A stretch of 64,000 nt of DNA from a virus, in the IMG/VR virus record IMGVR_UViG_3300008216_000011, positions 7,602 to 71,601 of that record; one strand, written 5' to 3'. How positions within the stretch are numbered: the first letter of the stretch is position 1; each line of letters begins with the position of its first letter. The notes under the pieces are model-generated. The model was not told the origin of the DNA. It did no database searches and was given only the letters and a program-made list of their open reading frames with translations. Position numbers and translations under genes: made by a program. Shown here piece after piece: positions 3,757 to 60,791 of this stretch.

Positions 3757-4893
3757 ATGGCTCGACGCAAATCAACGATAGGAAAACTTCAAATTTCAGA
3801 AATGAGAAGCCTTATCAACAAGAAAGCTGGCATGAATGTCGCTTTCGATCTTAAGAATGAAAACCCAACCGAAGTGAAAGCCTGGATTCCAACTGGATCT
3901 CGTTGGCTAGACTCGATTATTTGCCGCGGCCAACTAGCCGGCATCCCGGTTGGAAAAATCACGGAAATCGCCGGCCTAGAGTCGACAGGGAAATCGTTCA
4001 TGGCGGCACAAGTCGCCGCGAATGCTCAGAAGATGGGAATTGATGTTATCTACTTTGATTCTGAATCTGCTATCGATCCGACTTTCTTGGAGCGCGCTGG
4101 CTGCGATTTAGAAACGCTCTTGTATGTGCAGGCAGCTTCGGTGGAATTTGTACTAGAGACAATCGAAGAGCTTTTGGGTTCAAACGCCAACAGAATGCTG
4201 TTTATTTGGGATTCTCTGGCACTCACCCCTTCTATCTCAGATATCGAGGGCGATTTTAACCCCAACTCCTCTATGGCAGTCAAGCCTCGCATTCTCTCTA
4301 AGGGTATGGCAAAACTAACAGTGCCCATTGCTAATAGTCAGTCGACGTTCTTGGTTTTAAACCAGCTAAAGACGAACATCCCGTCTGGGCCAAATGCGCA
4401 CATTGTTGCTATGACCACTCCATACATTACACCCGGAGGAAAGGCCATGCACTATGCTTATTCACTTCGCGTGTGGCTCACTGGACGAAAGGCCAAAGCT
4501 TCCTTTATCATGGATGACAAAGGGTTCAGAATCGGATCAGAGGTAAAAGCAAAACTTGAGAAATCTCGATTTGGCACTCAGGGTCGCAATTGCGCATTCA
4601 AGATTCTTTGGGGAGAGGGTATCGGCGTGCAGGATGAAGAAAGTTGGCTGGAGGCCATCAAAGGTTCCGAGAACCTTCTTCAGCGCGGCGCATGGTATGC
4701 ACTTCAATACGAAAATGGAGATCAGGAGAAGTTCATGAGTTCTCAGTGGGTCGAGAAGTTGGCTAATGAAAAGTTTAAGCAGCGTGTCTTTGAAATTATG
4801 GACGAAGAGATCGTTATGAAGTTTGATAAACGTCAGGGAACTGCCAGCGAATTTTATGATACTGAAGAAGAATCATCAGAACAACAAAAATAA
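3757..4893 (+). CDS. recA: RecA/UvsX recombinase
   Basis: Walker A GLESTGKS, DSESAID, WDSLA, NQLK, TPGGKAM. Confidence 0.93.
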   Translation: MARRKSTIGKLQISEMRSLINKKAGMNVAFDLKNENPTEVKAWIPTGSRWLDSIICRGQLAGIPVGKITEIAGLESTGKSFMAAQVAANAQKMGIDVIYFDSESAIDPTFLERAGCDLETLLYVQAASVEFVLETIEELLGSNANRMLFIWDSLALTPSISDIEGDFNPNSSMAVKPRILSKGMAKLTVPIANSQSTFLVLNQLKTNIPSGPNAHIVAMTTPYITPGGKAMHYAYSLRVWLTGRKAKASFIMDDKGFRIGSEVKAKLEKSRFGTQGRNCAFKILWGEGIGVQDEESWLEAIKGSENLLQRGAWYALQYENGDQEKFMSSQWVEKLANEKFKQRVFEIMDEEIVMKFDKRQGTASEFYDTEEESSEQQK

Positions 4894-10571: not shown

Positions 10572-10585
10572 TAGAAACAAACCAC

Positions 10586-10628
10586 TTGACTTCTTTGCCC
10601 TTACGAGTTATACTGTAGGGGCATTTTA
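10586..10628 (+). promoter_or_regulatory. sigma70-type promoter embedded in a terminator-like hairpin
   Basis: TTGACT-17-TATACT; the -10 box lies in the loop of TGCCCTTAC/GTAGGGGCA followed by TTTT. Confidence 0.6.
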
Positions 10629-10644
10629 GTTTGAGGAGAAAAAA

Positions 10645-18028: not shown

Positions 18029-18631
18029 ATGAAAATTACAACAACATACTCTCCCTTACTAAAGGATCCCGAATTACAGAGAAACCCTGTTATTATCAGG
18101 GTTAACGAATTTAATAATCGAGCAGCGAAGGATTTTGAGACACAGATTACTCGGGCCCATAATACCGGACAGCCTGTTATTCCAATTGTCATTGATTCGT
18201 ATGGAGGGCAGGTGTATAGCCTTATGAGCATGATCTCCTCTATTAGACACTCAGAGTTACCAGTCGCGACGATTATCGAAGGAAAGGCGATGTCTTGCGG
18301 AGCAATTCTGTTTTCTTTCGGTGCCGATGGCATGAGATTTATGGATGCTGACGCAACGCTGATGATCCATGATGTTTCATCGGGAATGTGGGGGAAGATC
18401 GAAGAGATCAAAGCCTCTGCCGCAGAAGCTGAGAGATTGAACCAGAAGATCTATCGCATGATGGCGACCAACTGTGGGAACCCGGAAGAATATTTTTTGG
18501 AAATGATTCATGACCGCGGCCACACAGACTGGTTCCTTGATGCAGCAGAGGCTAAGAAGCATAATTTAGCAAACGAGATCCGAGTTCCAAAATTTAATAT
18601 TCTTGCGAACGTCGCGATCAATTTCGAATAG
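18029..18631 (+). CDS. ClpP-like protease
   Basis: IDSYGG, AMSCGA (Ser), MIHD (His), DWFLDA.EA. Confidence 0.85.
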   Translation: MKITTTYSPLLKDPELQRNPVIIRVNEFNNRAAKDFETQITRAHNTGQPVIPIVIDSYGGQVYSLMSMISSIRHSELPVATIIEGKAMSCGAILFSFGADGMRFMDADATLMIHDVSSGMWGKIEEIKASAAEAERLNQKIYRMMATNCGNPEEYFLEMIHDRGHTDWFLDAAEAKKHNLANEIRVPKFNILANVAINFE

Positions 18632-18639
18632 AGGTTATT

Positions 18640-19155
18640 ATGAGTGTTGGACCTAATTTATGGAAGAAGGAAGGTGGCGCCGTTGGGTTTAGTTCGAAAT
18701 CTGTTGAATGGGATACCCCGGCCGCATTCTTTCAACGTTTGGATTTAAGTTTTTCATTTACTTTGGATCCTTGCGCAACAGAGAGAAACGCAAAGTGTAG
18801 CAAATTCTACACCATTGAGCAGAATGGCCTAGAGCAAGATTGGGGTGGGGAGACTGTTTTTGTTAACCCGCCCTACGGCCGCGGCATCGGTGCCTGGGTT
18901 GAAAAGGCTTATAAGGAGAGTAAGAAACACAATACGACAGTTGTTATGTTGATTCCCTCTCGCACAGACACGAAGTGGTGGCACAATTATGTTATGAAGG
19001 CCAAAGAGGTTTATCTTCTTAAGGGAAGGTTGAAATTTGGTGATTCGAAGAATGCTGCGCCATTTCCTTCTGCAGTGGTGGTATTTGAGTCTGACAGTCT
19101 TCTAGCGCGCACCCCCTCAACCAATCCGCGCATGTTTTCATTAGAAAGGACATAG
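18640..19155 (+). CDS. Phage-type DNA N6-adenine methyltransferase (Dam-like)
   Basis: EWDTP, LDPCA, VFVNPPYGR, LIPSRTDT.WW, GRLKF, APFPS. Confidence 0.88.
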   Translation: MSVGPNLWKKEGGAVGFSSKSVEWDTPAAFFQRLDLSFSFTLDPCATERNAKCSKFYTIEQNGLEQDWGGETVFVNPPYGRGIGAWVEKAYKESKKHNTTVVMLIPSRTDTKWWHNYVMKAKEVYLLKGRLKFGDSKNAAPFPSAVVVFESDSLLARTPSTNPRMFSLERT

Positions 19156-19157
19156 GT

Positions 19158-19427
19158 ATGAAAAAAATTAGAAAAGTAGTAAAAAAGAATAAAAAGAAAG
19201 AGTCGAACGATGCACTTTCTGCTTTGGAGAAGAAGGCTAGCCTCTTCTTAGATATGCCGTCTGAGTGCTGTGTGTGCAGCGAAGAATTCGATAAGGAAGA
19301 TAAAGAGATGGTAGAGACTTGGCAGGTTTCAGTTTATGAAGAAAGAAAGCTGGTTAGATTAACCTGCCCAGTGTGTCACGGCAAGGTCAAAAATTTCATT
19401 GAAAGGATAAGAAATGAACAGGAATAA
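19158..19427 (+). CDS. Hypothetical Zn-finger protein
   Basis: CCVC...CPVC. Confidence 0.6.
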   Translation: MKKIRKVVKKNKKKESNDALSALEKKASLFLDMPSECCVCSEEFDKEDKEMVETWQVSVYEERKLVRLTCPVCHGKVKNFIERIRNEQE

Positions 19428-20502
19428 CAAAAGTTTTACGACCAACACATATGGCAAAGTAGAATACACGTATGAACAGGAACGCCAGTTTGCAGAATCT
19501 CTTTCGTACGATGATGTACTTTTAAAACCACAGTATTCTGAGATCTTGAGTCGTTCAGATATTGATATTGGCAGCGATTTAGGACTCAACCATCGCCTAG
19601 GCTTGCCTCTGATTGCCGCGCCGATGGACACAATTTCCGAAGCAGACATGGCCCTATCTATGGACCGCTCTGGCGGAATGGCAGTATTACATCGCTATAA
19701 TACACCGGAAGAGCAGGCAAGGGTGGCATCGACAGTTATAAAATTGCATGGCGCAACCGTCGCCGCGGCCATTGGGGTTTCGGACGATTTCCTAGTACGA
19801 GCTACAGCGCTCTATGAGGCTGGTGTGCGCACTTTCTGCTTAGATGTGGCCCATGGACACCACATTCTCGTACGGCGAGCTATAGCGTCTCTGAGGCTAA
19901 CTTATGGTAATAAAATTCATATCATGGCTGGAAATGTTGCAACGCTTGAGGGCTTGAATGACCTATCTGATTGGGGCGCTGATAGTGTTCGTGTCGGAAT
20001 CGGCGGCGGCTCGATTTGTAGTACTAGGATACAAACTGGCCATGGCATACCAACATTCCAATCTGTACTGGATTGTGCTAAAACTGACCGCGATGTAAAG
20101 ATCATCGCTGACGGAGGAATTAAAAATTCTGGCGACATTGTAAAGGTTTTGGCTGCCGGCGCAGATTTTGTTATGGCCGGTTCTATACTTGCCGGAACAG
20201 ACGAATGCCCGGGCGAACTAATAAAGACTCACGATGGAGAGTTCAAAACCTACAGAGGCATGGCCAGTAAAGACGCTCAGATGGACTGGCGCGGCCGCAC
20301 ATCATCTTTAGAAGGTGTCTCAGCAGTTGTTCCATATAGGGGCCCCGTCGCCAATGTTTTGCAGGATCTAGAAAGAGGTATCCGTAGTGGCTTTTCGTAT
20401 TCCGGCGCAAGCTGCTTAGTTGAATTACAGGCAAAGTCTAAGTTCATTAGGCAAACTGGCGCCGGCCAATTGGAAAGTACAACTCACATTAGTGGGCGAT
20501 AA
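19414..20502 (+). CDS. guaB: IMP dehydrogenase / GMP reductase family (no CBS domains)
   Basis: APMDT, DVAHGH, GNVAT, GIGGGSICSTR (catalytic Cys), IADGGI, YRGMAS. Confidence 0.85.
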   Translation: MNRNNKSFTTNTYGKVEYTYEQERQFAESLSYDDVLLKPQYSEILSRSDIDIGSDLGLNHRLGLPLIAAPMDTISEADMALSMDRSGGMAVLHRYNTPEEQARVASTVIKLHGATVAAAIGVSDDFLVRATALYEAGVRTFCLDVAHGHHILVRRAIASLRLTYGNKIHIMAGNVATLEGLNDLSDWGADSVRVGIGGGSICSTRIQTGHGIPTFQSVLDCAKTDRDVKIIADGGIKNSGDIVKVLAAGADFVMAGSILAGTDECPGELIKTHDGEFKTYRGMASKDAQMDWRGRTSSLEGVSAVVPYRGPVANVLQDLERGIRSGFSYSGASCLVELQAKSKFIRQTGAGQLESTTHISGR

Positions 20503-24893: not shown

Positions 24894-26465
24894 GTGCCTA
24901 ATTGCAAATTTAATTCCCGCAGAGATCTAAATGAAAAGGTTCTGAGCGGAGTAAACACTTTAGCAGACAACGTTGCTGCTACTCTTGGGCCCAAAGGCCG
25001 AAACGTAATATTACAAGAAAAGGGCAAGGAACCTTTTATTACAAAAGATGGCGTCACTGTTGCCACTTTCGTTCATCTAGATGATGAGTTTGAAAACGCA
25101 GCTGCGCAAATTATTAAACAAGCATCTTCACAAACAAACACTGCAGCGGGAGATGGCACAACTACGGCAACAGTATTGGCCCGGGCCATACTAGTGCAAG
25201 CGCAGAAGTTTCTGTCTGCCGGCGCTTCCCCCGTAGAATTGAAGAGGGGCATAGACCGAGCAGTCGAAGCGATTGTTGTCAGGTTAGACGAACTCTCAAC
25301 TCCGATCACGAGCCTAGATGATATTAGGAATATCGCTACAATTTCCGCCAACAATGATCCTCAGATTGGAAAGTTGATTGCAACGGCTGTCGACAGCGCT
25401 GGTAAGGACGGTGCGATCACTGTCGAAGAGGCTCGTTCGGTGGAAACAACTTTAGACCTGATCGAAGGTTTTAGGTTCCAATCGGGATACGCAGCATCTG
25501 CTTTTGTTACAGATGAAAGAAGAGCTGCCGTCAAGTATGACAGCCCTCTATTGCTAATCACCGATAACAAGATCGAGGCCGTTGAGCAGATTCTCCCGAC
25601 TCTGGAGACGATCTCTCGTGACGGCCGGCCCCTGGTTATAGTTGCAGAAGATATCGATGGCCAAGCTCTAGCAGCGCTGATCATGAATTCTATTCGCGGC
25701 ACGCTGAAGGTTGCAGCTATTAAAGCGCCGCGCTACGGAGAAGAGCGAAGGAACATTCTCAGCGATCTGGCCCTCGCTACTGGGGCCACCTTTATAGCCC
25801 GAGATTCCGGAATTGATTTAAGAAATGTTAAATTAAACCACCTGGGTCAGTGCAAGAGTATCGACATAACGAAAACTACAACCACCATTATTGGCGGCAA
25901 AGGTGATTATGAAAACATCGACAAGGCTGTTGAGCTTCTGAAGGCAGAAATGGTGCAAACAGACTCTATGCGTGAGAGCGAGAAGGTTCAAGAAAGAATC
26001 ACTAGACTCTCTAGTGGCATCGCCGTCGTCCGCGTAGGCGGGGCAACCGAAGTTGAGATGACAGAGAAGAAGCATAGGATAGAAGACGCTCTAGAGGCCG
26101 TAAAGTCGGCCCAGGAGGCCGGAGTCCTCCCCGGCGGCGGCATTGCCCTCATTCGCGCCACAGCGGCTCTAGAGGTCGATGTAGAGAATGAAGATCAACA
26201 ATTGGGTGTGGAGATAGTGAAGAATGCTGTGTTTGAGCCATTGAGGCAGATGGCAAAGAATTCCGGAGAATCCCCAGATTTGATCGTCGCGGCTATACAA
26301 GAAGAGTCGGCCCATCGCGGCTATAATTTTAGAACATGTGAGATTGTTGATATGCTTGAATTGGGTATCATAGACCCAACCAAGGTTACACGCTGCGCCC
26401 TGCAGAATGCAGCTTCGGCCGCTGGAACTCTAATCACAACTTCACATGCTATTGTTGAAGTATAG
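24894..26465 (+). CDS. groL: Chaperonin GroEL
   Basis: TLGPKGRNV, ITKDGVTVA, AGDGTTTATVLA, RIEDAL; no GGM tail. Confidence 0.95.
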   Translation: MPNCKFNSRRDLNEKVLSGVNTLADNVAATLGPKGRNVILQEKGKEPFITKDGVTVATFVHLDDEFENAAAQIIKQASSQTNTAAGDGTTTATVLARAILVQAQKFLSAGASPVELKRGIDRAVEAIVVRLDELSTPITSLDDIRNIATISANNDPQIGKLIATAVDSAGKDGAITVEEARSVETTLDLIEGFRFQSGYAASAFVTDERRAAVKYDSPLLLITDNKIEAVEQILPTLETISRDGRPLVIVAEDIDGQALAALIMNSIRGTLKVAAIKAPRYGEERRNILSDLALATGATFIARDSGIDLRNVKLNHLGQCKSIDITKTTTTIIGGKGDYENIDKAVELLKAEMVQTDSMRESEKVQERITRLSSGIAVVRVGGATEVEMTEKKHRIEDALEAVKSAQEAGVLPGGGIALIRATAALEVDVENEDQQLGVEIVKNAVFEPLRQMAKNSGESPDLIVAAIQEESAHRGYNFRTCEIVDMLELGIIDPTKVTRCALQNAASAAGTLITTSHAIVEV

Positions 26466-43032: not shown

Positions 43033-43109
43033 GGGCTGCTGGCCTAACGGGTAAGGCAAATGGCTTTTAACCATTCGATTTCTGAGTTCGAATCTCAGGC
43101 AGCTCACCA
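43033..43109 (+). tRNA. tRNA-Lys (anticodon UUU)
   Basis: Acceptor GGGCTGC/GCAGCTC-ACCA, anticodon loop CTTTTAA, TTCGAAT T-loop; TTGACA..GATAAT promoter at ~42979. Confidence 0.9.
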
Positions 43110-46947: not shown

Positions 46948-47024
46948 GGGGGTGTATCCCAACCGGCAGAGGAAATCGACTTAAAATCGATCAAGTGTGG
47001 GTTCGAATCCCACCACCCCTACCA
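46948..47024 (+). tRNA. tRNA-Leu (anticodon UAA), short variable arm
   Basis: Acceptor GGGGGTG/CACCCCT-ACCA, anticodon loop CTTAAAA, GTGGG-TTCGAAT-CCCAC T-arm. Confidence 0.88.
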
Positions 47025-47657: not shown

Positions 47658-47734
47658 GCGCGTGTCAGCATAACAGTAAATGCTCCGATCTTATATATCG
47701 GCTGATGGGGGTGCAATTCCCTCCACGCGTACCA
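47658..47734 (+). tRNA. Non-canonical tRNA-Ile (anticodon UAU)
   Basis: Acceptor GCGCGTG/CACGCGT-ACCA; CCGAT-CTTATAT-ATCGG; D-loop lacks GG and T-loop reads TGCAATT. Confidence 0.7.
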
Positions 47735-48282: not shown

Positions 48283-48482
48283 AAGATATTAAAGTTGGAG
48301 ACTTAGTTAAGATTCTTCCTGGCACGGAAGACGCTCGCCTTCCTAAGAACAGAATGGGGGTGGTTATAAATAACGACCCCGGGAAGCAACCCGGCCAAAC
48401 TACGACTTGGAATGTACATTTTATAAACAATGGGGTTTCAATGAGGTTTCATGAAATGTTTATAGAAGTTATAAAGGAATGA
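48279..48482 (+). CDS. KOW/SH3-like small protein
   Basis: IKVGDLVKI...GVVI...IEVI. Confidence 0.7.
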   Translation: MKDIKVGDLVKILPGTEDARLPKNRMGVVINNDPGKQPGQTTTWNVHFINNGVSMRFHEMFIEVIKE

Positions 48483-48683
48483 ATGTTTGAAGTTGGAGAT
48501 TTGGTTCGATTAGTTACTAGTCCAAGATATCCGGACAATAGAAATTTAGCATTAATAGTTAAAGTTGTATGGGAGAGCCCCATCCCGCACGCGCGCCCCC
48601 GACGAGTGGCCTCGTATCGAGCGGCGCTAGTTGGGCACGAGGGTATACATGTAATATATTCGTGGGAAGTCGAGAGAATATAA
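48483..48683 (+). CDS. KOW/SH3-like small protein
   Basis: FEVGDLVRL. Confidence 0.65.
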   Translation: MFEVGDLVRLVTSPRYPDNRNLALIVKVVWESPIPHARPRRVASYRAALVGHEGIHVIYSWEVERI

Positions 48684-50366: not shown

Positions 50367-50532
50367 ACCGGAGGTACTATACATAAAATAAGGGTTCCTG
50401 TCTCAACGAACCCGTTCGCCCAAATTTGGTAAAAAGGAAATATATTTTTAAAGTAATGGGCAACCCGATAGAGGAGTTAACGAGAGGCTGGCAAGTCGGC
50501 AGCGAGGACACCCGACACCTCCGGTTTTTTTA
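50367..50532 (+). ncRNA. Candidate multibranch structured RNA
   Basis: Closing stem ACCGGAGGT/ACCTCCGGT plus T-tract; internal GGGTTC/GAACCC, GCCCA/TGGGC and GTCGG/CCGAC stems. Confidence 0.45.
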
Positions 50533-50583
50533 TTTGACAATAAAGTTTTAGTCATTGACACAGACCCGAATCTCAGGCATAAT
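50529..50583 (+). promoter_or_regulatory. Palindrome + sigma70 promoter module copy 1
   Basis: TTTATT-TGAC-AATAAAGTTTT; TTGACA-17-CATAAT. Confidence 0.8.
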
Positions 50584-50589
50584 ATACGT

Positions 50590-50772
50590 ATGATGAAACT
50601 TGGCGATTTGGTAAGATGTATATATGCTAGCGGGCAGATCGGCTTAATTGTCGGTGTCGCGACAGACCATGCCCGACCCCTGTATAGTGTCCTCATCGAA
50701 GAGGAAGGTGGCAGGTCGCGCGCATACCGCTTCGTTGCAGAGCATCTGGAGTTATTAAGTGAAGCCGGGTGA
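50590..50772 (+). CDS. KOW/SH3-like cassette gene
   Basis: MKLGDLV...LELLSEAG. Confidence 0.7.
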   Translation: MMKLGDLVRCIYASGQIGLIVGVATDHARPLYSVLIEEEGGRSRAYRFVAEHLELLSEAG

Positions 50773-50977
50773 TCTAGTAAAATTGTGTGGCGCTCTAGAC
50801 CCCACCGGCAAGGCACTGGGCATTGTAGTATGCCGGCATGCCTCCGAAACTACGCGCAGCGGCACTACCCTCGACACGGTTATCGATGTATATTGGCCAG
50901 AGGACGGACATCCCGCCGGCGGCTATAGGCGCACAGAACTATCAGAATTTTTGGAGGTTGTAAATGAAAGTCGGTGA
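50759..50977 (+). CDS. KOW/SH3-like cassette gene
   Basis: MKPGDLV...LEVVNESR. Confidence 0.75.
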   Translation: MKPGDLVKLCGALDPTGKALGIVVCRHASETTRSGTTLDTVIDVYWPEDGHPAGGYRRTELSEFLEVVNESR

Positions 50978-51161
50978 CTTGGTGAAAGCAGCAGACAAAA
51001 CGTTTTATCAGACCATATGGGAAGGTGCAGGTATCCTGCTTCGTCCCGACGAGGGGCGCACATATGTTGAGTGGTCGAATTCCTGGGAAATTCTCTGTGA
51101 TGACGGTAAACGTCGAGTTATTGACGGCGAAGATATTGAGGTAATCGGTGCAACGCGATGA
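50964..51161 (+). CDS. KOW/SH3-like cassette gene
   Basis: MKVGDLV...IEVIGATR. Confidence 0.75.
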   Translation: MKVGDLVKAADKTFYQTIWEGAGILLRPDEGRTYVEWSNSWEILCDDGKRRVIDGEDIEVIGATR

Positions 51162-51357
51162 TTCAGAATATCCCAACCTAGGCGATCTATTGTTTATGGA
51201 ATGTTTGCCCGGGGGACCGTGCCTTTACCTGGGAAAGTATCGAGGTATAGGAAACCAATTATACTTCACAGTATATCACGGTTCTTCACAAACAATTATG
51301 AAGCTTCCAGATTATCACTTTATCGATATTGAGTTGGCCAAAGATTGTGGCTACTAG
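51148..51357 (+). CDS. KOW/SH3-like small protein
   Basis: PNLGDLL; 14-nt overlap with upstream gene. Confidence 0.55.
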   Translation: MQRDDSEYPNLGDLLFMECLPGGPCLYLGKYRGIGNQLYFTVYHGSSQTIMKLPDYHFIDIELAKDCGY

Positions 51358-51380
51358 AGAGAGTGTTAAGATCGGTGATT

Positions 51381-51441
51381 AAAACTTTTATTTGACAATA
51401 AAGTTTTCGGAATTGACTTCTTCTAAAATCTCAGGCATAAT
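51381..51441 (+). promoter_or_regulatory. Palindrome + sigma70 promoter module copy 2
   Basis: AAAACTTTTATTTGACAATAAAGTTTT; TTGACT-17-CATAAT. Confidence 0.85.
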
Positions 51442-51447
51442 ATATAC

Positions 51448-51672
51448 ATGATGAAGATTGGCGATTTAGTTCAGGAAGTCGACCCCGAGCGACCGGAGGA
51501 GAAGTTTCCCATGGGAATCGTCATTCCTTTCCCGGCCGGCTTTCCCGAATCCGTCGGCCGCAGCGCCGCCGATTACGAAAACGGCGACATAGTGTGGGTT
51601 TCTTGGCCCCAGCTTGGCCAAGAAAACTGGTGCTATATAGATGAATTGAGGTTGCTGAATGAAAATCGGTGA
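51448..51672 (+). CDS. KOW/SH3-like cassette gene
   Basis: MKIGDLV...LRLLNENR. Confidence 0.75.
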   Translation: MMKIGDLVQEVDPERPEEKFPMGIVIPFPAGFPESVGRSAADYENGDIVWVSWPQLGQENWCYIDELRLLNENR

Positions 51673-51865
51673 CTTGGTAAAATACACCCCCGAAATGACA
51701 GGGCTGCAAAATTGTTTTGGAATCGTTATTGGTTTCAACGGAGGAGCGGTGGAAGTCCAGTGGACTGACCTTCACTCCGCCCCAGCTTTGACGACGCGCA
51801 CGCGCGGCAAGGAAATCGGAGTCGAACTACCTGATTTCTTGGAGGTTGTAAATGAAAATCGGTGA
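51659..51865 (+). CDS. KOW/SH3-like cassette gene
   Basis: MKIGDLV...LEVVNENR. Confidence 0.8.
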   Translation: MKIGDLVKYTPEMTGLQNCFGIVIGFNGGAVEVQWTDLHSAPALTTRTRGKEIGVELPDFLEVVNENR

Positions 51866-52073
51866 CATTGTAACGGAAACGGGCACGTGGAGACTACGTA
51901 CTCCGTACGTCGGTGAACTCGGCATTATAGTGCCACTCCCGGGCAGGTTAACTGGAACACAGTTCGAACGGGAAGCTAATGACGGAAACATTGTTTGGGT
52001 TCACTGGACTGAATCTGGTGAGGATATCTGGTCCTTCGTTTCAGAGTTGGAGGTTGTAAGTGAAAATCGGTGA
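51852..52073 (+). CDS. KOW/SH3-like cassette gene
   Basis: MKIGDIV...LEVVSENR. Confidence 0.8.
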   Translation: MKIGDIVTETGTWRLRTPYVGELGIIVPLPGRLTGTQFEREANDGNIVWVHWTESGEDIWSFVSELEVVSENR

Positions 52074-52260
52074 CTTGGTAAGATTTCGTTCCTCGTACCC
52101 GGATTGGCCTGTAGGAATAGTTGTAGAGGAATTTCATCTGAACTCTGTCGCTGTGGCACAACCATATACCGAACTGCGTGTTCAATGGCTAGACGATGAC
52201 AACAAGAATGTTAGCTGGGTAAGGCGGAAAGACTTGGAGGTTGTAAGTGAAAGTCGGTGA
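52060..52260 (+). CDS. KOW/SH3-like cassette gene
   Basis: MKIGDLV...LEVVSESR. Confidence 0.8.
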   Translation: MKIGDLVRFRSSYPDWPVGIVVEEFHLNSVAVAQPYTELRVQWLDDDNKNVSWVRRKDLEVVSESR

Positions 52261-52450
52261 CTTGGTAATGAAGGCCAAAACCAGCGGTGTCCGCGATGCG
52301 GCGGGTTTTGGAATTGTGATAGATACTGTGTATAAATCGGGCGGTCAGTACCGACCCAACGGCCGAGGATGTAAGGTCCGGTGGTCAAATGATTACGGCA
52401 CATTCTGGGCAGCCGAAGATAAGTTGGAGTTGATAAATGAAAACCGGTGA
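52247..52450 (+). CDS. KOW/SH3-like cassette gene
   Basis: MKVGDLV...LELINENR. Confidence 0.8.
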   Translation: MKVGDLVMKAKTSGVRDAAGFGIVIDTVYKSGGQYRPNGRGCKVRWSNDYGTFWAAEDKLELINENR

Positions 52451-52661
52451 TCTCGTCACTGTCAAACACCAAAGGGATGTTTTTTTTAATGCGTCTGTTA
52501 CAACTATGGGAATCATTATAGAGACTAAATCAGTTGAATCGATAGAATCAGAGACTCCTTGCGTCATGATTCCGCTGTATCGAGTGCATTGGTTCCTATC
52601 CGATGGCTCTTTTCCCGGGAAAGCTTGGTACGACAAAGAACAGCTTAGGATTGCCAAATGA
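52437..52661 (+). CDS. KOW/SH3-like cassette gene
   Basis: MKTGDLV...GIII...VHW. Confidence 0.75.
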   Translation: MKTGDLVTVKHQRDVFFNASVTTMGIIIETKSVESIESETPCVMIPLYRVHWFLSDGSFPGKAWYDKEQLRIAK

Positions 52662-52882
52662 AGAACAGCGCGCCATGTGAAAACTGTAACAAAAAAGCTA
52701 CACGGCGATTTAAAATTAACGAACCTGGGGTTGTCTACAAGCTAAACAATACCGACGTAGAATCAGACCGGTCAGGCACCTTTTGTACCGTCGCCTGCGC
52801 CAAGAGTCACGCTGCCTGGATGCACGCATGCGGGCGCTCCAAGATGCCGAAAGGTTGGAAAGTCGAGGAAATTAAAAAGTGA
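52658..52882 (+). CDS. Small Zn-finger protein
   Basis: CENC...FCTVAC. Confidence 0.6.
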   Translation: MKNSAPCENCNKKATRRFKINEPGVVYKLNNTDVESDRSGTFCTVACAKSHAAWMHACGRSKMPKGWKVEEIKK

Positions 52883-53085
52883 AACCCGGCGATCTTCTCA
52901 GAGATAAGGAGTATGGCGACATTGGGATACTTATTAAGATTGGCCACCCTGACAACGATACGATCTTCGACGATCATGAAAAAAGAACGTATAATTATTT
53001 AGTTTTAGATACTAGGGGGAAGTGCACATGGCTCCCACTAGACTATCTAGAAAAAGACTGTGAGATTATATATGAAAGTACGTGA
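52879..53085 (+). CDS. KOW/SH3-like cassette gene
   Basis: MKPGDLL...CEIIYEST. Confidence 0.7.
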   Translation: MKPGDLLRDKEYGDIGILIKIGHPDNDTIFDDHEKRTYNYLVLDTRGKCTWLPLDYLEKDCEIIYEST

Positions 53086-53176
53086 TTTGGCCTTGACAGC
53101 ACTGGGGGTTATTGCTATAGTAATAATGAGCTATGAAGATTTCTTAAGATATAGAGATCGGCGCTGGAGACGATGA
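53072..53176 (+). CDS. Short/degenerate cassette ORF (not in ORF track)
   Basis: 34 aa MKVRDLALTALGVIAIVIM...; 14-nt overlap geometry preserved. Confidence 0.4.
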   Translation: MKVRDLALTALGVIAIVIMSYEDFLRYRDRRWRR

Positions 53177-53177
53177 T

Positions 53178-53396
53178 ATGAAAGCTGGCGATCTCATACG
53201 ATTTACATGGAAGGATCAAGAAAGTAGAATCCACTGGAATGCAATGGAGCATGTCGGCATTTTTGTTGAATTTGTTGAAGGCGACTACAAAGATGGCACA
53301 TACGTTGCGGTCGTACCCGAGTCTAAACATTTGTCTGCCGGCCCTGCCCGTTTTTCAGAAATACACTGGAACTGTGAAATAATCAGTGAACACTAA
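53178..53396 (+). CDS. KOW/SH3-like cassette gene
   Basis: MKAGDLI...CEIISEH. Confidence 0.7.
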   Translation: MKAGDLIRFTWKDQESRIHWNAMEHVGIFVEFVEGDYKDGTYVAVVPESKHLSAGPARFSEIHWNCEIISEH

Positions 53397-53607
53397 TAGA
53401 CTATGCCCGAGACTGGGCGATCTAGTGAGGCACACTCACTCTGATGGAGGTTCCACGATAGGACTGGTAGTGGAAACTTACGGCATTAAACTTTATATCA
53501 GGGAGATCGGCAACGATGTCCCGGGCCAAGATCTCTTTGTTGCGCGCAACAAAGTTGAGGTAATCTCCGCTGCCCCTCGCAAAAAAGTATTTCAAAAAAA
53601 GTATTGA
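53386..53607 (+). CDS. KOW/SH3-like small protein
   Basis: RLGDLV...GLVV...VEVIS. Confidence 0.65.
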   Translation: MNTNRLCPRLGDLVRHTHSDGGSTIGLVVETYGIKLYIREIGNDVPGQDLFVARNKVEVISAAPRKKVFQKKY

Positions 53608-53641
53608 CTTCCTTCAAAGCTTCAGGCATACTGTAGGTACG

Positions 53642-53791
53642 ATGAAACGTGAGGGACGAAACCTGATTGCACTCGCTGCCTGGAACCACCGGGGAGCAGG
53701 GGAGCATAAGAACAAGGCCCGCAAGGGTTCCGGCAAGGGCAGCGGCAAAGTTGCTCGACACCCGAAGCACAAGGGGCGACGTTATGTCTGA
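53642..53791 (+). CDS. Small basic ArfA-like peptide (not in ORF track)
   Basis: 49 aa ...HKNKARKGSGKGSGKVARHPKHKGR; promoter TTGACT-17-CATACT at 53604. Confidence 0.45.
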   Translation: MKREGRNLIALAAWNHRGAGEHKNKARKGSGKGSGKVARHPKHKGRRYV

Positions 53792-54008
53792 CAGAATTGA
53801 AGTCGGAGATTTGGTAAAAAGAATTCCTCCTCACCTGGGACCAGACAACAAAGTTTATCTGGTGGCAGAAATAGAAAAACGCGAACATACCGATGGAAGG
53901 CCGATTCTCGGCCCCCACGGTCGACCAAGTTGGTGTGTGCTACACGACGACGCGGGCCGCCTGACTGCCGTCCGCCAGCTGACACTCGTTCAAAAGGGAA
54001 AACAATAA
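53784..54008 (+). CDS. KOW/SH3-like small protein
   Basis: MSDRIEVGDLVK. Confidence 0.7.
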   Translation: MSDRIEVGDLVKRIPPHLGPDNKVYLVAEIEKREHTDGRPILGPHGRPSWCVLHDDAGRLTAVRQLTLVQKGKQ

Positions 54009-54009
54009 T

Positions 54010-54579
54010 ATGTGTATCGCACAACATGTACCAGAAATGTCAAACTCCGAACTTAACGGACTAGCCCAGAATCGCTTCATTGACGAAGAGACTGCGCTAG
54101 CAATTGTTAAAACGGGCTATAACCGCGCACTGCACAAGTTGGCCACTAATTCTAACATTTCAAATAAAGTTGTTGATATTCTTTTTCAACGACGAGGGTT
54201 TGTGATTAAGTGCATACTAATACGGTCTGGTCATGTTTCTTCTGATAGGTATGAGGAGGTTTTAGCTATGTTGAATCCTCGCCTACGCGCGCACCGAATT
54301 ATGGACACGTTTGTCGGCGGCTGGTACCATGACGGCGTTGGTACTCCCGCGAACTTGTTGGGCCAAATATTTGACGGTCTTGTTGATACTGGCGAGATGC
54401 GTCATTACTGGCTTTCGTACTTCGCAAGAAATACTGGGTGCGATCTAGCTTTGCTAGCAAAGTTACAGCGATTCCAAGCCGACAAGCCGCCGGCGTACGG
54501 AGTTTCGCAGGCTCCCGCCGACGCGATTCGAAAAAAGCTAGTCGAGCTATCTCGACAAGAAGCTGCGAAAGACAAGTAA
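54010..54579 (+). CDS. Hypothetical helical-repeat (LRV-like) protein
   Basis: LAQNRFI / LATNSNIS / FARNTGC repeats. Confidence 0.65.
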   Translation: MCIAQHVPEMSNSELNGLAQNRFIDEETALAIVKTGYNRALHKLATNSNISNKVVDILFQRRGFVIKCILIRSGHVSSDRYEEVLAMLNPRLRAHRIMDTFVGGWYHDGVGTPANLLGQIFDGLVDTGEMRHYWLSYFARNTGCDLALLAKLQRFQADKPPAYGVSQAPADAIRKKLVELSRQEAAKDK

Positions 54580-54603
54580 TATCAACAGCTTAGGGAAAAC
54601 AAA

Positions 54604-54888
54604 ATGAAAACTGTTATTGTTTTTGACACTGAAGATCAAGAGGGAATGAAGAATTCTTACAAGATTATCAACATGTTGGCGACTGAATATAACATCAGAG
54701 CGACCCCAGGTGACGTTGGCCCTGCTTTCGGCAAGATCGAATTTATCAAAATGATTCGGGCATGCGTACGTGAGGCAGAGGAAGCTGCAAAGCAGGATCC
54801 GCTCATGCCTGGAACTCTGTCCTGGGCCAAGCGTTTCACAGAGAAAGTATTTTCCGCCAAGAATGCCGGAGGCCGCTACCAGGGCTAA
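54604..54888 (+). CDS. Hypothetical protein; C-terminal part faintly L7/L12-CTD-like
   Basis: GKIEFIKMIR...LSWAKRFTE. Confidence 0.55.
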   Translation: MKTVIVFDTEDQEGMKNSYKIINMLATEYNIRATPGDVGPAFGKIEFIKMIRACVREAEEAAKQDPLMPGTLSWAKRFTEKVFSAKNAGGRYQG

Positions 54889-54946
54889 ACTTTTATTTGA
54901 CAATAAAGTTTTCCTGCTTGCAATTAGTAAAAATCTCAGGCATAAT
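54887..54946 (+). promoter_or_regulatory. Palindrome + sigma70 promoter module copy 3
   Basis: AAACTTTTATTTGACAATAAAGTTTT; TTGCAA-17-CATAAT. Confidence 0.85.
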
Positions 54947-54952
54947 ATACCT

Positions 54953-55141
54953 ATGATAAAGATTGGCTCATTGGTTAAACTCGTACGTGACGGTCGCCTC
55001 GCTGTCGTCCATCGCGTTGCTGTAAACGGCAACATTGGTCTACGACCCCTTGATGGTCTTGGAATTCGCGGTGAACGGGCACTCCCCGGGGACTGTCTTA
55101 TTTGGACCTACAGCGAACGCATCGAACTCCTATCATCATGA
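54953..55141 (+). CDS. KOW/SH3-like cassette gene
   Basis: MIKIGSLVKL...IELLSS. Confidence 0.65.
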   Translation: MIKIGSLVKLVRDGRLAVVHRVAVNGNIGLRPLDGLGIRGERALPGDCLIWTYSERIELLSS

Positions 55142-55308
55142 AGATCGGCGACTTGGTAAGAAATCTAAACTCCGAGTACGGAGAACTTGGTGTTATTATT
55201 AATTTCGCCTCTTCCAACTTCAAGGAATCGCATCCGATTGTTGCATGGGGTAATAGAACAGCACTTATCCTGCGAGATTATGTGGAGGTTATAAATGAAA
55301 GTCGGTGA
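55138..55308 (+). CDS. KOW/SH3-like cassette gene
   Basis: MKIGDLV...VEVINESR. Confidence 0.75.
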   Translation: MKIGDLVRNLNSEYGELGVIINFASSNFKESHPIVAWGNRTALILRDYVEVINESR

Positions 55309-55507
55309 CTTGGTAAAAGCAATCCCACTCGCAAAGTGGGATGTAAACCCTGACGATTACACCCAAATTGGTGTTGTAGCTAAGCTGGGCATTGATAGTG
55401 AACTGCTGCCCGATCCTGATAAGATTGTACTCCTTAACTTTGGGCATGATGATGGATTCTTTCGCATATGCGACTGGAAGTTTGAGGTAATCAATGAAAA
55501 TCGGTGA
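55295..55507 (+). CDS. KOW/SH3-like cassette gene
   Basis: MKVGDLV...FEVINENR. Confidence 0.8.
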   Translation: MKVGDLVKAIPLAKWDVNPDDYTQIGVVAKLGIDSELLPDPDKIVLLNFGHDDGFFRICDWKFEVINENR

Positions 55508-55694
55508 CTTGGTAAAGTATGATGTATCCCTGAGCGGATTAGAAGAGTGCGTCGGTATTATTGTGGCGCAGAATGGAATGGAAGCCTTTGATGTTAGGTG
55601 GAATGACCGACATTCCAAGTTACAAGACATAGCTGCTAACGAAATTAGCACAGAGTTAAAAGAGTTTTTGGAGGTTGTAAGTGAAAATCGGTGA
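55494..55694 (+). CDS. KOW/SH3-like cassette gene
   Basis: MKIGDLV...LEVVSENR; close relative of 51659. Confidence 0.8.
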   Translation: MKIGDLVKYDVSLSGLEECVGIIVAQNGMEAFDVRWNDRHSKLQDIAANEISTELKEFLEVVSENR

Positions 55695-55881
55695 CTTGGT
55701 AAAGTTTTCTGGGACTAGCGGAAACTTGGCCGGCTGGGATTACACGGGCATTCTCGTGAAGGTTTCGAAACCCACGGGCCTAGGGAAGCCGATTGCAACG
55801 GTTTTTTGGAATGCGGCCCACGGTCAGGTTCAGCACCATCCCCTAGTAGAGCAGTTGGAGGTTGTAAGTGAAAATCGGTGA
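55681..55881 (+). CDS. KOW/SH3-like cassette gene
   Basis: MKIGDLV...LEVVSENR. Confidence 0.8.
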   Translation: MKIGDLVKFSGTSGNLAGWDYTGILVKVSKPTGLGKPIATVFWNAAHGQVQHHPLVEQLEVVSENR

Positions 55882-56041
55882 TTTAGTAAAAACATCCTGC
55901 TTCGGCCCACGTTACAGTCGCGGCGAGGTCGGCGTACTTGTTAAGCCATATGGGAGAGTGCCGCGCTGTTGGGTGGTGCTCTTCGGGAACGTCGAGGAAG
56001 TAGTTGCAGTAGACGGACTGGATCTAATTAATACAGCCTAG
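55868..56041 (+). CDS. KOW/SH3-like cassette gene (not in ORF track)
   Basis: 57 aa MKIGDLVKTSCFG...LDLINTA. Confidence 0.7.
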   Translation: MKIGDLVKTSCFGPRYSRGEVGVLVKPYGRVPRCWVVLFGNVEEVVAVDGLDLINTA

Positions 56042-56045: not shown

Positions 56046-56132
56046 AAAACTTTTATTTGACAATAAAGTTTTAGCTATTGACTTCTGCCTTGCACTCAGG
56101 CATAATAAGAGAGTGAAAGGGCAATCAAGCCC
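56046..56132 (+). promoter_or_regulatory. Palindrome + promoter + leader hairpin module copy 4
   Basis: Palindrome; TTGACT-17-CATAAT; AGAGAGTG; GGGC-AATCAA-GCCC. Confidence 0.85.
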
Positions 56133-56146
56133 AGAGGATACATAAT

Positions 56147-56593: not shown

Positions 56594-56680
56594 AAAACTT
56601 TTATTTGACAATAAAGTTTTAGCTATTGACTTTGCTAGCGCGATCAGGCATAATAAGAGAGTGAAAGGGCAATCAAGCCC
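56594..56680 (+). promoter_or_regulatory. Palindrome + promoter + leader hairpin module copy 5
   Basis: Palindrome; TTGACT-17-CATAAT; GGGC-AATCAA-GCCC. Confidence 0.85.
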
Positions 56681-56694
56681 ATGGGGACAGGTCA

Positions 56695-56910: not shown

Positions 56911-56995
56911 AACTTTTATTTGACAATAAAGTTTTAGCTATTGACTTCTGCCTTGCACTCAGGCATAATAAGAGAGTGGAAGGGCGCTCAAGCCC
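56909..56995 (+). promoter_or_regulatory. Palindrome + promoter + leader hairpin module copy 6
   Basis: Near-identical to 56046 over ~70 bp; GGGC-GCTCAA-GCCC. Confidence 0.85.
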
Positions 56996-57011
56996 AAACG
57001 GAGATTAGAAA

Positions 57012-57794
57012 ATGTCTTATAAGCGAACTGTACACTGCTCTTACTGCTACAACACCGGCCACAATCGGCGCGGCTGCCCCGATCTCAAAAAGTTTATCAA
57101 GGAGAACCCTGATAGCTATGTCGCCAAGCGCGCCGAATCCCGTAAGGCTAGCCAGCGGCCGCGCAAGTGCTCTTACTGCGCTACCCCGGGCCACACCCGC
57201 CGTACCTGCGAGAAGTTTAAGACGAATCGTCAGATCTTCATCGACGATGCGCTGCTTTACCGGCGAGCCTTCAAGGCATGGGCAGATAAGGTTGGCCTAG
57301 GCATTGGCGCACTAGTGGAATACGAAGGAGTGCAGCACATAGACCGCGACGGGAACTGGACATATGATAATGATGCTAAGGTGCTGATGATGGTCACTCA
57401 CTTAGATGCTGACGACCATGATATCAGCACTCATCGCAGTATCGTTAGCCGGCATGCGCTTTCTCCGTTGATTGGCCGGCCGATCTGGATGGATGCAACA
57501 TCGAGCAAGGGTAGAATGCGGCTGCGGCTCCCAGAGATCCCGGGAGTCTCGCCGGCTACCTTCGCCGATCACTGGGACAGCCAACGTCAGCGCGGAGTTG
57601 AACGAAGCTTCAAGATTGTTTCCCCTGCACCGGGCGAGATCCCTGAGTCGTACTTATCTCTGGACAATATTGTTGCAATGGCAGACGAGGTATTTAAACC
57701 AAAGGCTGCCCATGGCCAAATGCACTACGATACCAAGATTTGCGACGAGCAGCGCGCTGCACTAGTACAGGCAGCAGATCTCGACGCGGGATAA
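57012..57794 (+). CDS. Protein with two CCHC zinc knuckles
   Basis: CSYCYNTGHNRRGC and CSYCATPGHTRRTC. Confidence 0.8.
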   Translation: MSYKRTVHCSYCYNTGHNRRGCPDLKKFIKENPDSYVAKRAESRKASQRPRKCSYCATPGHTRRTCEKFKTNRQIFIDDALLYRRAFKAWADKVGLGIGALVEYEGVQHIDRDGNWTYDNDAKVLMMVTHLDADDHDISTHRSIVSRHALSPLIGRPIWMDATSSKGRMRLRLPEIPGVSPATFADHWDSQRQRGVERSFKIVSPAPGEIPESYLSLDNIVAMADEVFKPKAAHGQMHYDTKICDEQRAALVQAADLDAG

Positions 57795-59427: not shown

Positions 59428-60708
59428 ATGACTGACGAATCCAAAACTTTTGACCTTAACATGCACGTTGCGCGACTACTGCGCGATGAGCCCTTTTTTG
59501 CTGCACTCAGCCGACGCGTCGACAAGGTAGCCTCCGATGCCGTGCCGACGGCTGGTGTCCGAGTGACCGAAGAAGGTAAGCTGGAAATGGCTTACAACAC
59601 TCAGTTTTTCGCCGGCCTTACTGATGTTCAGCGAGCCGGAGTACTCAAGCATGAGTTCTACCACCTTGTTTTCGAACATGTTACGGGTCGACTTCCAGAA
59701 AAGAAGATGACGAAAATCTGGAACATCGCGACAGACTTGGCTATCAACTCCCACTTGCAGGGACAGCTGCCCGAAGCATGCTGCATGCCCGGCGAAGGAC
59801 CCTTCAAGAATCTTCCGGCGGGCCAGTCTGCCGAGTGGTACCTTAAAGCCCTGAAGGATATGCAGAAAGAGCAGGAAGAGAACGAAGGCGAAGGCCAGCA
59901 GGGCAACAACCCCGGCGACGACTGCGAAGGCGAAGGCGGAGGCCAAGGTCAGGGCGAAGGCGAAGGTCAGGGCGAAGGCCAAGGCCAAGGTAACGGATCC
60001 TGGGAGGACCAGCAGTTTGATGATCACGGCGGCTGGGCCGAGGGTAGCGACGAAGCAAAGCAGATTGCTAAGGAACGAATTAAAGAATACATCAAGGATG
60101 CTGCCGAGGAGGCTAGCGCATCGCGCGGCTGGGGTACCGTCTCTAGCAGCGTACGCAAGCAGATCCTAGATTCCATCCGCTCAACGGTCGACTGGAAGAA
60201 GGTCCTCCGCTACTTCATCAAGACCTCTCAGCGCGCCAACAAGCGTTCTACTGTGCGCCGGCTGAACAAGCGCTACCCCTACCAGCACCCGGGTTCTAAG
60301 GTGCTTCGACAGGCCAACATCGCTATCAGCGTCGATCAGTCTGGGTCGGTAAGTGACAAGATGCTAGCAGCGTTCTTCTCGGAACTGAACAAGCTGGCCA
60401 ATGTCGCGACCTTCACGGTCGTACCGTTCGATACTCGCGTTGACGAGTCGAAGGTCTACGTCTGGAAGAAGGGCGAAACCCGCAAGCGAGAACGAGTGCT
60501 TTACGGTGGCACCGACTTCAACGCGCCGACAAAGTTTGTCAACGCTGGCAAGTTCGACGGACACATTGTTTTGACCGACATGGAGGCTCCTAAGCCTATC
60601 GCTAGCAATTGCCAGCGTATGTGGATGACCAGCGAACGACATGCCCAGCGACCCTACTTCAAGACGACTGAACGCGTGATTGGAATCAAGATCCCAGAGG
60701 GCCGATAA
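59428..60708 (+). CDS. Metallopeptidase-like + vWA domain protein (MoxR partner, DUF2201-like)
   Basis: HEFYH (HExxH), NIATDLAIN, G/E/Q-rich linker, MIDAS DQSGS, GGTDF, LTD; promoter TTGCAA-17-CATAAT at 59378. Confidence 0.85.
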   Translation: MTDESKTFDLNMHVARLLRDEPFFAALSRRVDKVASDAVPTAGVRVTEEGKLEMAYNTQFFAGLTDVQRAGVLKHEFYHLVFEHVTGRLPEKKMTKIWNIATDLAINSHLQGQLPEACCMPGEGPFKNLPAGQSAEWYLKALKDMQKEQEENEGEGQQGNNPGDDCEGEGGGQGQGEGEGQGEGQGQGNGSWEDQQFDDHGGWAEGSDEAKQIAKERIKEYIKDAAEEASASRGWGTVSSSVRKQILDSIRSTVDWKKVLRYFIKTSQRANKRSTVRRLNKRYPYQHPGSKVLRQANIAISVDQSGSVSDKMLAAFFSELNKLANVATFTVVPFDTRVDESKVYVWKKGETRKRERVLYGGTDFNAPTKFVNAGKFDGHIVLTDMEAPKPIASNCQRMWMTSERHAQRPYFKTTERVIGIKIPEGR

Positions 60709-60791
60709 CTTTTATTTGAGAATAAAGTTATAGCCATTGACTTTGCCTCGTTTCGCAGGTATAATTAAAGAGTAAGTGGGCAATGAAGCCC
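60706..60791 (+). promoter_or_regulatory. Palindrome + promoter + leader hairpin module (variant)
   Basis: TAACTTTTATT-TGAG-AATAAAGTTA; TTGACT-17-TATAAT; GGGC-AATGAA-GCCC. Confidence 0.8.

Follow-up and report, generated by a model that had tools for sequence, protein, structure and literature searches.

Overlapping mini-genes for predicted SH3-like barrels in a marine phage are joined by a dual-frame coding junction, a probable site of cassette exchange

Introduction

How can a phage gain, lose or replace small genes that overlap one another, when every such change has to leave the end of one reading frame and the start of the next exactly in register? The question is raised by an array of tandem mini-genes at positions 50590-56041 of the window, the 64,000-nt stretch of viral DNA analysed here, which corresponds to bases 7602-71601 of a 71.6-kb record (IMGVR_UViG_3300008216_000011) estimated to be 39% complete. 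All genes of the window lie on the + strand. The array genes encode small proteins predicted to fold as SH3-like barrels, and consecutive members are joined by a short repeat in which the last codons of one gene, the Shine-Dalgarno (SD) sequence and the first codons of the next gene are superimposed. The array is probably a multigene family, early and translationally coupled, in which the junction doubles as the crossover site for shuffling whole genes, here called cassettes. As further parts of this account we infer a recombination mechanism and an enzyme to drive it, circular intermediates, early expression and a role of the products as diversifying binders of host factors.

Anatomy of the junction

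Eleven gene junctions of the window share a 14-nt, out-of-frame overlap. The upstream gene ends in ...L-E-V-V-[N/S]-E-[N/S]-R-TGA, with GGAGG held by its L-E-V codons. The downstream start, either ATG or GTG, follows 6 nt past the GGAGG and reads M-K-[I/V]-G-D-L-V, and the upstream TGA stop sits within the downstream Gly-Asp codons, GGT GAY. An overlap of stop and start, with the SD inside the upstream open reading frame (ORF), is the arrangement of translationally coupled genes, and the junction would be expected to couple consecutive members of the array tightly.

A 35-nt pattern spanning the junction is found at seven places with three mismatches or fewer and at none in 100 shuffled sequences; degenerate copies are visible at three further places, and one more junction of the same type at about 50746-50780 makes 11 (Table 1). 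A preliminary description of this DNA had listed ten copies, which comprise these seven and the three degenerate ones. Its repeat spacing of 187-208 bp was correct, and its proposal of a dual-frame element combining stop, SD and start agrees with the ORF listing, which gives the 14-nt overlaps (for example, 51659-51865 with 51852-52073), the ...LEVV[NS]E[NS]R-stop tails and the MK[IV]GDLV starts. The interiors are as divergent as it had held: 19 clear paralogs of 56-74 aa, beside one doubtful ORF at 51148, show 22-31% identity to the first sequence and a mean column identity of 24%, and conservation among them is confined to G, D and L on the N-terminal side and LEV on the C-terminal side.

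The [NS]E[NS]R tail is absent from those genes that stand last before a non-family gene or a promoter, the one at 52437-52661 ending in ...RIAK and the one at 55868-56041 in ...INTA. The tail is therefore a by-product of the overlap, an out-of-frame reading of the MK[IV]G of the next gene, and not a selected feature of the protein.

A junction of two frames could also be taken for a programmed +1 frameshift or readthrough site yielding poly-barrel fusion proteins. The downstream frame does lie at +1 to the upstream one at the stop, in the window C usually follows the stop codon, and relatives with two to four fused domains occur naturally. This reading was rejected as very improbable: there is no slippery P-site codon, as CGG should be unable to re-pair on GGU by base-pairing rules, the SD is misplaced at about 17 nt upstream of the stop instead of adjacent to it, the stop is followed by T in 92 of 126 junctions family-wide, and each downstream gene has an SD and a start of its own. 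The fused relatives (P0006, P0011, P0013, P0056 and P0077) hold two to four family barrels in frame, evidence that in-frame linkers can arise from the junction.

Direct repeats of about 35 nt at regular spacing further bring to mind the known repeat arrays, namely integron cassettes, CRISPR and diversity-generating retroelements. These were likewise rejected, and are the least credible of the explanations considered. No integrase or reverse transcriptase was found among the 41 larger ORFs scanned (28 + 13) of the 39%-complete record, and thus no IntI. The repeats are direct and non-palindromic, lie inside ORFs on one strand, contain no promoter and lack the inverted symmetry of attC sites, and the apparent spacers are coding barrels of about 155 nt.

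Cassette differences between related phages

The nearest relatives of the window phage, G005 and G006, have about 58% identity to it in the flanking ATPase and HNH-like proteins, and their arrays differ greatly from that of the window in content and order. At this distance breakpoints are not mappable, and the more closely related trio G010, G011 and G003 was therefore compared, with array ORFs called by a simple custom script. G010 and G011 hold 26 collinear reciprocal-best pairs of array ORFs, at 48-96.6% aa identity, along with nine ORFs in G010 and eight in G011 that lack a counterpart. Two of the differences are insertions of a whole cassette (o13-o14 against o13-X-o14, and o23-o24 against o23-Z-o24). 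Another is a replacement, in which o22, lying between o1 and o23, is swapped for the unrelated Y (o1-o22-o23 against o1-Y-o23), and between o20 and o21 four cassettes stand in place of two unrelated ones. A copy of o22 at 93.6% nucleotide identity is present in G003, and both of its neighbours there are different.

The limits of homology concentrate at the junctions. Internal ends of blastn high-scoring segment pairs fall within -15 to +22 nt of a junction start in 43 of 77 cases, where at most 7% would be expected by position. Blocks of homology start 0-13 nt before a start codon and end 14-20 nt after the next one, and in the aligned junctions the switch of identity lies within the common RTGAAAGTCGGTGAY core. 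An intact 14-nt overlap is kept at every cassette gain, loss or replacement that was examined. Fixed order and content, with breakpoints elsewhere than at the repeat, would have spoken against cassette exchange; among these three genomes order and content vary by whole cassettes, and the switches lie inside the junction core.

A plainer explanation is that of an ordinary tandem multigene family, in which the junction is kept for its barrel strands, SD, stop and initiation region, and in which generic recombination followed by selection has produced the rearrangements without any special crossover role. Overlapping genes do force the survivors of any rearrangement to be in register, as this explanation requires. 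Yet because the genes overlap by 14 nt, gain or loss of a whole gene must be exactly in register, and illegitimate events seldom restore such an overlap, which all of the cassette changes examined nonetheless keep. Exchange at the junction regenerates the register directly, and recombination mediated by the junction is therefore favoured. The occurrence of o22 between different neighbours, with identity switching in the shared core on both of its sides, also argues against an ordinary multigene family.

Constraint on the nucleotide sequence

Beyond its two coding frames, the junction might carry constraints of its own. Codon usage at and around the junction was set against that for identical amino acids in the interiors of the family genes, and against that at 47 family starts that lack the overlap. 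Among the unique family starts of the window and loci L008-L035, 126 of 173 (73%) have the 14-nt overlap, a share biased upward because L008-L031 were picked for containing a junction; a further five overlap a long upstream frame in some other way, and the remaining 42 have no overlap.

Two of the biases have evident causes. Glu is encoded by GAG in 95 of 101 cases at junctions, against 42% in the interiors, because of the ribosome-binding site, and Gly by GGT at all 126 junction starts, against 26 of the 47 non-overlapping ones, because of the upstream TGA stop codon. The others lie further into the downstream gene. Val at codon 3 is GTC in 69 of 80 junctions (21% in interiors; 12 of 21 non-overlapping starts), Leu at codon 6 is TTR in 91 of 119 (37%; 35 of 46) and Val at codon 7 is GTA in 65 of 109 (18%; 22 of 40). 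The biases at codons 6 and 7 are as strong without the overlap; constraint on the nucleotides thus goes beyond protein coding, yet a large share of it is a property of all family starts. The preliminary description had asked whether the repeat is conserved beyond the demands of its two frames, and to this extent it is: synonymous uniformity at the junctions does exceed that of the interiors, though much of the excess is also present at the 47 starts without overlap.

Several observations favour the ordinary multigene family. In the predicted barrel GDLV supplies strand 1 and LEVV strand 5, the choice of GAG and xTG follows from GGAGG, that of GGT from the stop, and the TTR and GTA biases are shared with non-overlapping starts. 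Constraints of SD, stop and translation initiation account for a good part of the excess at synonymous sites. The preference for GTA over the commoner GTT, and that for GTC at codon 3, are nevertheless explained neither by A/T-richness nor by either reading frame.

Uniformity of this kind might instead reflect a cis-acting RNA signal, such as an operator or cleavage site for a repressor or endoribonuclease that acts on early mRNAs, with shuffling as an incidental matter. RegA and RegB of phage T4, a translational repressor and an endoribonuclease, respectively, would be the proteins to liken such a regulator to. The synonymous uniformity reaches about 20 nt into the coding region and is common to starts with and without overlap, and GGAGG is present at every junction, all of which would suit an RNA signal. 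It is an improbable explanation all the same, given that no candidate regulator was identified, that an Rfam scan of the window returned three tRNAs elsewhere and no conserved RNA structure or Rfam family in the array region, and that the mosaicism at the level of cassettes would be left unexplained.

The three tRNAs of the phage, Lys(UUU), Leu(UAA) and Ile(UAU), at 43033-43109, 46948-47024 and 47658-47734, read AAA, TTR and ATA, which are the codons over-represented at three junction positions: codon 2, codon 6 and the last upstream codon. The match may be coincidence or a general compensation for A/T codons.

A model of junction-mediated shuffling

In the model that we consider probable, the array comprises operons behind repeated sigma-70-type promoters, within which one conserved junction links each gene to the next. 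LEV[VI], the last predicted barrel strand of the upstream gene, is encoded by the codons that contain GGAGG, with the next start 6 nt on. A crossover or template switch would take place within the junction because this is the only stretch shared among otherwise unrelated cassettes, and the arrays would evolve through in-register gain, loss, replacement and relocation of whole genes. The recombination genes of the phage, encoding a RecA-family protein (PF00154, E 1.7e-37), a 5'-3' exonuclease and a single-stranded DNA-binding protein (SSB), might supply the drivers of such exchange.

Several points weigh against a crossover role for the junction. Selection alone would put surviving breakpoints at the junctions, whatever the mechanism that made them, and the bias at codons 6 and 7, being as strong at the 47 starts without overlap, points to a constraint of the translation start and not to one specific to the junction. 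At nine free sites, junctions are more similar within genomes (0.556) than between them (0.515), a difference reached in at most 1 of 2000 permutations, but the excess is small; moreover, loci L008-L031 were picked by their junction and related junctions are non-independent, so that the counts are inflated and the p-values optimistic. The clean breakpoints come from other members of the lineage and not from the window phage itself, and the core shared at the documented switches, about 15-20 nt, is short for exchange of the RecA type. Finally, no recombinant, deletion or circle was seen in the assembled contigs of four marine runs. These contigs break at the repeats, and their joints, all with sides of 21-34 nt, are cross-matches between repeats that speak neither for deletions or circles nor against them.

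On these grounds the ordinary multigene family, without a crossover role for its junction, is the strongest rival, though we hold it to be doubtful, and the in-register, two-sided switching of cassettes leaves the coupled family with a recombining junction as the likelier account. A bolder proposal, namely that the junction is kept by second-order selection as a recombination linker, the array being an integrase-free, self-shuffling library of KOW-like binders exchanged between co-infecting marine phages through excised circles, is speculative and we regard it as unlikely. Binders of this kind might, for instance, block defence proteins, or mimic the KOW surface of NusG/Spt5 and thereby capture RNA polymerase, Rho or ribosomal partners of the host.

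Predicted fold of the mini-proteins

An AlphaFold2 model of one family member, built with the 19 paralogs as alignment, is a five-strand barrel with a predicted local distance difference test (pLDDT) score of 90.7 and a predicted template modelling (pTM) score of 0.75. In this model GDLV forms strand 1, GIVV strand 2, V-x-W strand 3 and LEVV strand 5. A structural search independent of Foldseek placed the Spt5 KOW domain first (Z 8.6; root-mean-square deviation 2.1 Å over 58 residues). R67 DHFR, PsaE, Tudor and NusG KOW followed at Z 6.8-7.5, the NusG KOW domains at 6.8-6.9, and CarD at 6.3. Foldseek itself returned no match to the PDB at E ≤ 1e-3; its weak matches include Tudor and PWWP domains, with the PcrA Tudor domain, CarD and Mfd at E 0.03-0.08. 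The best matches in BFVD are unnamed viral proteins (E 1e-3).

At the level of sequence, none of 23 proteins of the region scored above a Pfam cut-off, and KOW (PF00467) was unmatched at E ≤ 1. The best Pfam match of any kind among them was to PWWP, at 21.2 bits under a cut-off of 25.6, and a single protein of the 23 matched PHROGs, in a family of unknown function (E 0.0022). The G-D-x-V ... G-x-V pattern does resemble the KOW motif, and the KOW/SH3-like name first given to these genes is apt for the predicted fold, as the confidence of the model and the Spt5 match indicate, but not for a sequence family. The mini-proteins are thus predicted to be stand-alone KOW/Tudor-like SH3 barrels. The Z values are within the range of a common fold, and because the SH3-like barrel is so common, similarity of fold assigns no function.

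Promoters, operons and gene content

The array is divided by promoters into operons that start at 50590, 51448, 54953 and, with a variant promoter, 53642. The promoter repeat consists of an A/T palindrome followed by TTGAC(A/T)-17-CATAAT and is present in seven copies in the window, six of them exact, where 0.01 would be expected by chance; its hairpin is weak (-3.1 to -6.8 kcal/mol; z -1.0 to -2.2). At all three promoters of the type that precedes family genes (50578-50592, 51436-51450 and 54941-54955), CATAAT ends exactly 6 nt before the first ATG with no SD in between; judging by this spacing, ribosomes probably read the first gene of each operon from a leaderless or near-leaderless mRNA. 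A second subtype (56049-56146, 56597-56694, 56912-57011 and 60708-60775) has the same palindrome with TTGACT-17-CATAAT, or TATAAT in the 60708 copy. Between this subtype and the non-family or divergent genes behind it lies a conserved, GTGAAAGGGCAATCAAGCCC-like leader that may form a GGGC/GCCC hairpin.

The features of the locus are collected in Table 1. Family copies also occur outside the array proper, at 47232, 48288-48479 and 48489-48674, with more motif matches besides. Within it, a 34-aa ORF at 53073-53176 has a family-like MKVRDLA start and continues as a hydrophobic helix; it may be the remnant of a family start fused to a membrane segment. To the right the array has a conserved anchor, a protein of about 250-260 aa with Cys-x2-Cys...His-x4-Cys knuckles, which is always 3' of the array in the window, G010, G011 and G003 (window 57012-57794; L036 8884-9633; L037, reverse, 10124-10870; L038, reverse, 2121-2876). 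A MoxR/AAA-type ATPase and then an HNH-like protein come after it.

Table 1. Features of the mini-gene array and associated elements, in window coordinates
Feature	Position	Strand	Remarks
RecA/UvsX-like recombinase	3757..4893	+	candidate driver of junction recombination
Promoter repeat 1	50526..50589	+	A/T palindrome + TTGACA-17-CATAAT; -10 ends 6 nt before ATG 50590
Promoter repeat 2	51384..51447	+	TTGACT-17-CATAAT; 6 nt before ATG 51448
Variant promoter	53604..53632	+	TTGACT-17-CATACT
Promoter repeat	54889..54952	+	TTGCAA-17-CATAAT; 6 nt before ATG 54953
Junction repeat, 35 nt, exact consensus	52047..52081	+	LEVV codons with GGAGG; GTG start; TGA in GGTGA; one of the seven copies at ≤3 mismatches
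Junction repeat, other copies at ≤3 mismatches	starts 50951, 51839, 52234, 55282, 55668, 55855	+	
Junction repeat, degenerate copies	starts 51646, 52424, 55481	+	
Junction repeat, further copy	start 50746	+	
Family mini-gene	50590..50772	+	60 aa; first of operon 1
Family mini-gene	50759..50977	+	72 aa; 14-nt overlap with upstream gene
Family mini-gene	50964..51161	+	65 aa; 14-nt overlap
ORF, uncertain family member	51148..51357	+	69 aa; internal LGDLL motif; divergent; outside paralog alignment
Family mini-gene	51448..51672	+	74 aa; first of operon 2
Family mini-gene	51659..51865	+	68 aa; 14-nt overlap
Family mini-gene	51852..52073	+	73 aa; 14-nt overlap
Family mini-gene	52060..52260	+	66 aa; modelled member, predicted 5-strand SH3-like barrel
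Family mini-gene	52247..52450	+	67 aa; 14-nt overlap
Family mini-gene	52437..52661	+	74 aa; 14-nt overlap; no family gene after; no [NS]E[NS]R tail
Non-family Cys-rich ORF	52658..52882	+	74 aa; weak zf-FCS match under Pfam cut-off; 4-nt ATGA overlap
Family mini-gene	52879..53085	+	68 aa
Family mini-gene	53178..53396	+	72 aa
Family mini-gene	53386..53607	+	start uncertain (aligned from 53404)
Family mini-gene	53784..54008	+	74 aa; N-terminal extension MSDRIEVGDLV
Family mini-gene	54953..55141	+	62 aa; first of operon 4
Family mini-gene	55138..55308	+	56 aa; 4-nt ATGA overlap upstream
Family mini-gene	55295..55507	+	70 aa; 14-nt overlap
Family mini-gene	55494..55694	+	66 aa; 14-nt overlap
Family mini-gene	55681..55881	+	66 aa; 14-nt overlap
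Family mini-gene	55868..56041	+	57 aa; last of operon; no [NS]E[NS]R tail
Other non-family ORFs	53642-53791, 54010-54579, 54604-54888	+	53642-53791 basic

Distribution of the family and the host phage

Loci related to the array were found by a DNA pattern scan for the exact 25-nt junction. Apart from the window phage, 23 viral contigs contain it, in 24 stretches that each hold 2-13 family ORFs in tandem. All 10 phage records searched with a profile made from the window paralogs gave matches, at 7-22 places each, including one record of 185.5 kb rated 100% complete. Searched against 1.84 billion representative proteins, the same profile gave 1364 matches at E ≤ 1e-3 (clusters at 50% identity). 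Among the best 150 of these, 106 begin MK[VI]GDLV and 94 end [SN]E[SN]R; from the latter, the same overlap is therefore present there. The 120 homologues listed in a second database carry no Pfam domain and no names other than "hypothetical protein" and one gene-caller string, and the Atlas neighbours of the family are all unnamed viral clusters. Contigs that carry the proteins of the window reach 189,632 bp. A literature search found the N-terminal motif string in no paper, and no description of such a family among papers on tandem small genes or Tudor-like phage proteins.

The genome that carries the array is that of an uncultured marine phage of about 190 kb, and the array lies in its presumed early region. 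Part of the window stretch is present in 17 marine or seawater metagenome runs from 16 studies. In a phage isolate collection, megablast of the region, tblastn of one family member and blastn of a 44-nt junction (E ≤ 1) found no cultured relative. Proteins flanking the array have at most 46% identity to their isolate matches, and a neighbouring 189-aa gene has one related locus only, which is distant (35% identity). Elsewhere the window encodes a GroEL-type chaperonin (24894-26465) and a DnaE-like polymerase (12648-16091), whose identities to isolate records are at most 46% and about 30%, respectively. It also encodes a short adenylosuccinate-synthetase homologue of 332 aa (17029-18027; PF00709, E 8e-83), which falls in PHROG 1211, annotated as a PurZ-type enzyme, and is adjoined by a ClpP-like protease, a Dam-type methylase and an IMPDH/GMP-reductase (16481-17026, 18029-19155 and 19414-20502). 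By this PurZ-type homologue, the phage may make 2-aminoadenine (Z) DNA.

Comparison with known systems

With its 1364 clusters and neither a Pfam nor a named PHROG family to its credit, the family is among the larger unnamed protein families in marine phage data, and it is found in 10-30 copies per genome in a lineage without a cultured member. It offers a concrete and testable case of how phages diversify small early genes, in which one dual-frame junction supplies stop, ribosome-binding site and start. If the junction is a crossover site, repeat-mediated modular shuffling, known from the intergenic promoter-early stem-loops (PeSLs), would extend to coding sequence, and the clean gain and loss of overlapping genes would be explained. 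The products, as stand-alone KOW/Tudor-like barrels behind strong promoters, are good candidates for new host-takeover or counter-defence binders.

In their predicted five-strand SH3-like barrel the mini-proteins are like the KOW domains of NusG and Spt5 and like the Tudor-like domains of CarD, Mfd and the PcrA C-terminus, which interact with RNA polymerase, but they stand alone and are not domains of larger factors, and no member reaches any Pfam threshold. The nearest functional analogy is with GoF, MotB.1 and Frd.2 of phage T4, described as early proteins of LSm-like fold and dissimilar sequence; these too are small, uncharacterised phage proteins with an SH3-like or LSm-type barrel (PMC12152347). 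As far as that account describes them, the T4 proteins derive from three dispersed genes, in contrast to the 10-30 tandem, junction-linked paralogs of the array lineage, and the likeness is one of fold. The host-takeover module of Bacillus phage SPO1, with 26 small early genes (bioRxiv 10.1101/569657), resembles the array in packing small early genes closely behind strong promoters. From what that report conveys, its genes neither form a single paralogous family nor share a junction.

That conserved boundary sequences might serve as targets of recombination is an old idea for lambdoid phages, within the modular theory. Short conserved "linker" sequences at gene boundaries of these phages were proposed as targets of homologous recombination that creates mosaics (PMC3974807). 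Such linkers, in the form given there, are sporadic and lie between unrelated modules, whereas the linker of the array is contained in the termini of every member, 10-30 times per genome.

The closest parallel is with the PeSLs, which are mobile regulatory cassettes of T4-type phages subject to modular shuffling (Arbiol et al. 2010, PMC2839356; Comeau et al. 2014, PMC4122927). For these, exchange between flanking repeats is held to produce a deletion together with a mini-circle able to re-insert, and the mini-circles have been demonstrated by PCR (PMC2839356). The preliminary description had not recognised the array as a described system; that was too strong, as the same model of excision, mini-circle and re-insertion is already published (PMC2839356). 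In both cases plastic regions carry small, dispensable early genes between short repeats (PMC2839356, PMC4122927), related phages differ by insertion, deletion and replacement of repeat-flanked genes, and each proposed exchange restores working expression signals (PMC2839356). Repeat-bounded insertions, deletions and replacements of this kind are what G010, G011 and G003 display, and the seven copies of A/T palindrome and sigma-70-type promoter in the window are themselves PeSL-like. The differences, so far as the cited accounts extend, are in the repeat and its cargo. PeSLs are intergenic and transcriptional, with a promoter and stem-loop as the repeat, whereas the junction of the array is coding and promoterless, a dual-frame stop, SD and start within one protein family; its repeat is about 15-35 nt, against about 100 nt; and its cassettes are all paralogs of one fold, in contrast to the unrelated ORFans of PeSL cassettes. 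Because the PeSL exchange model is already in print, the array is best regarded as an analogue of it in coding sequence and not as a wholly new concept. What is new is an unnamed family of a known fold and the coding-junction form of shuffling; what is known, from the PeSLs, is the concept of repeat-mediated modular shuffling itself.

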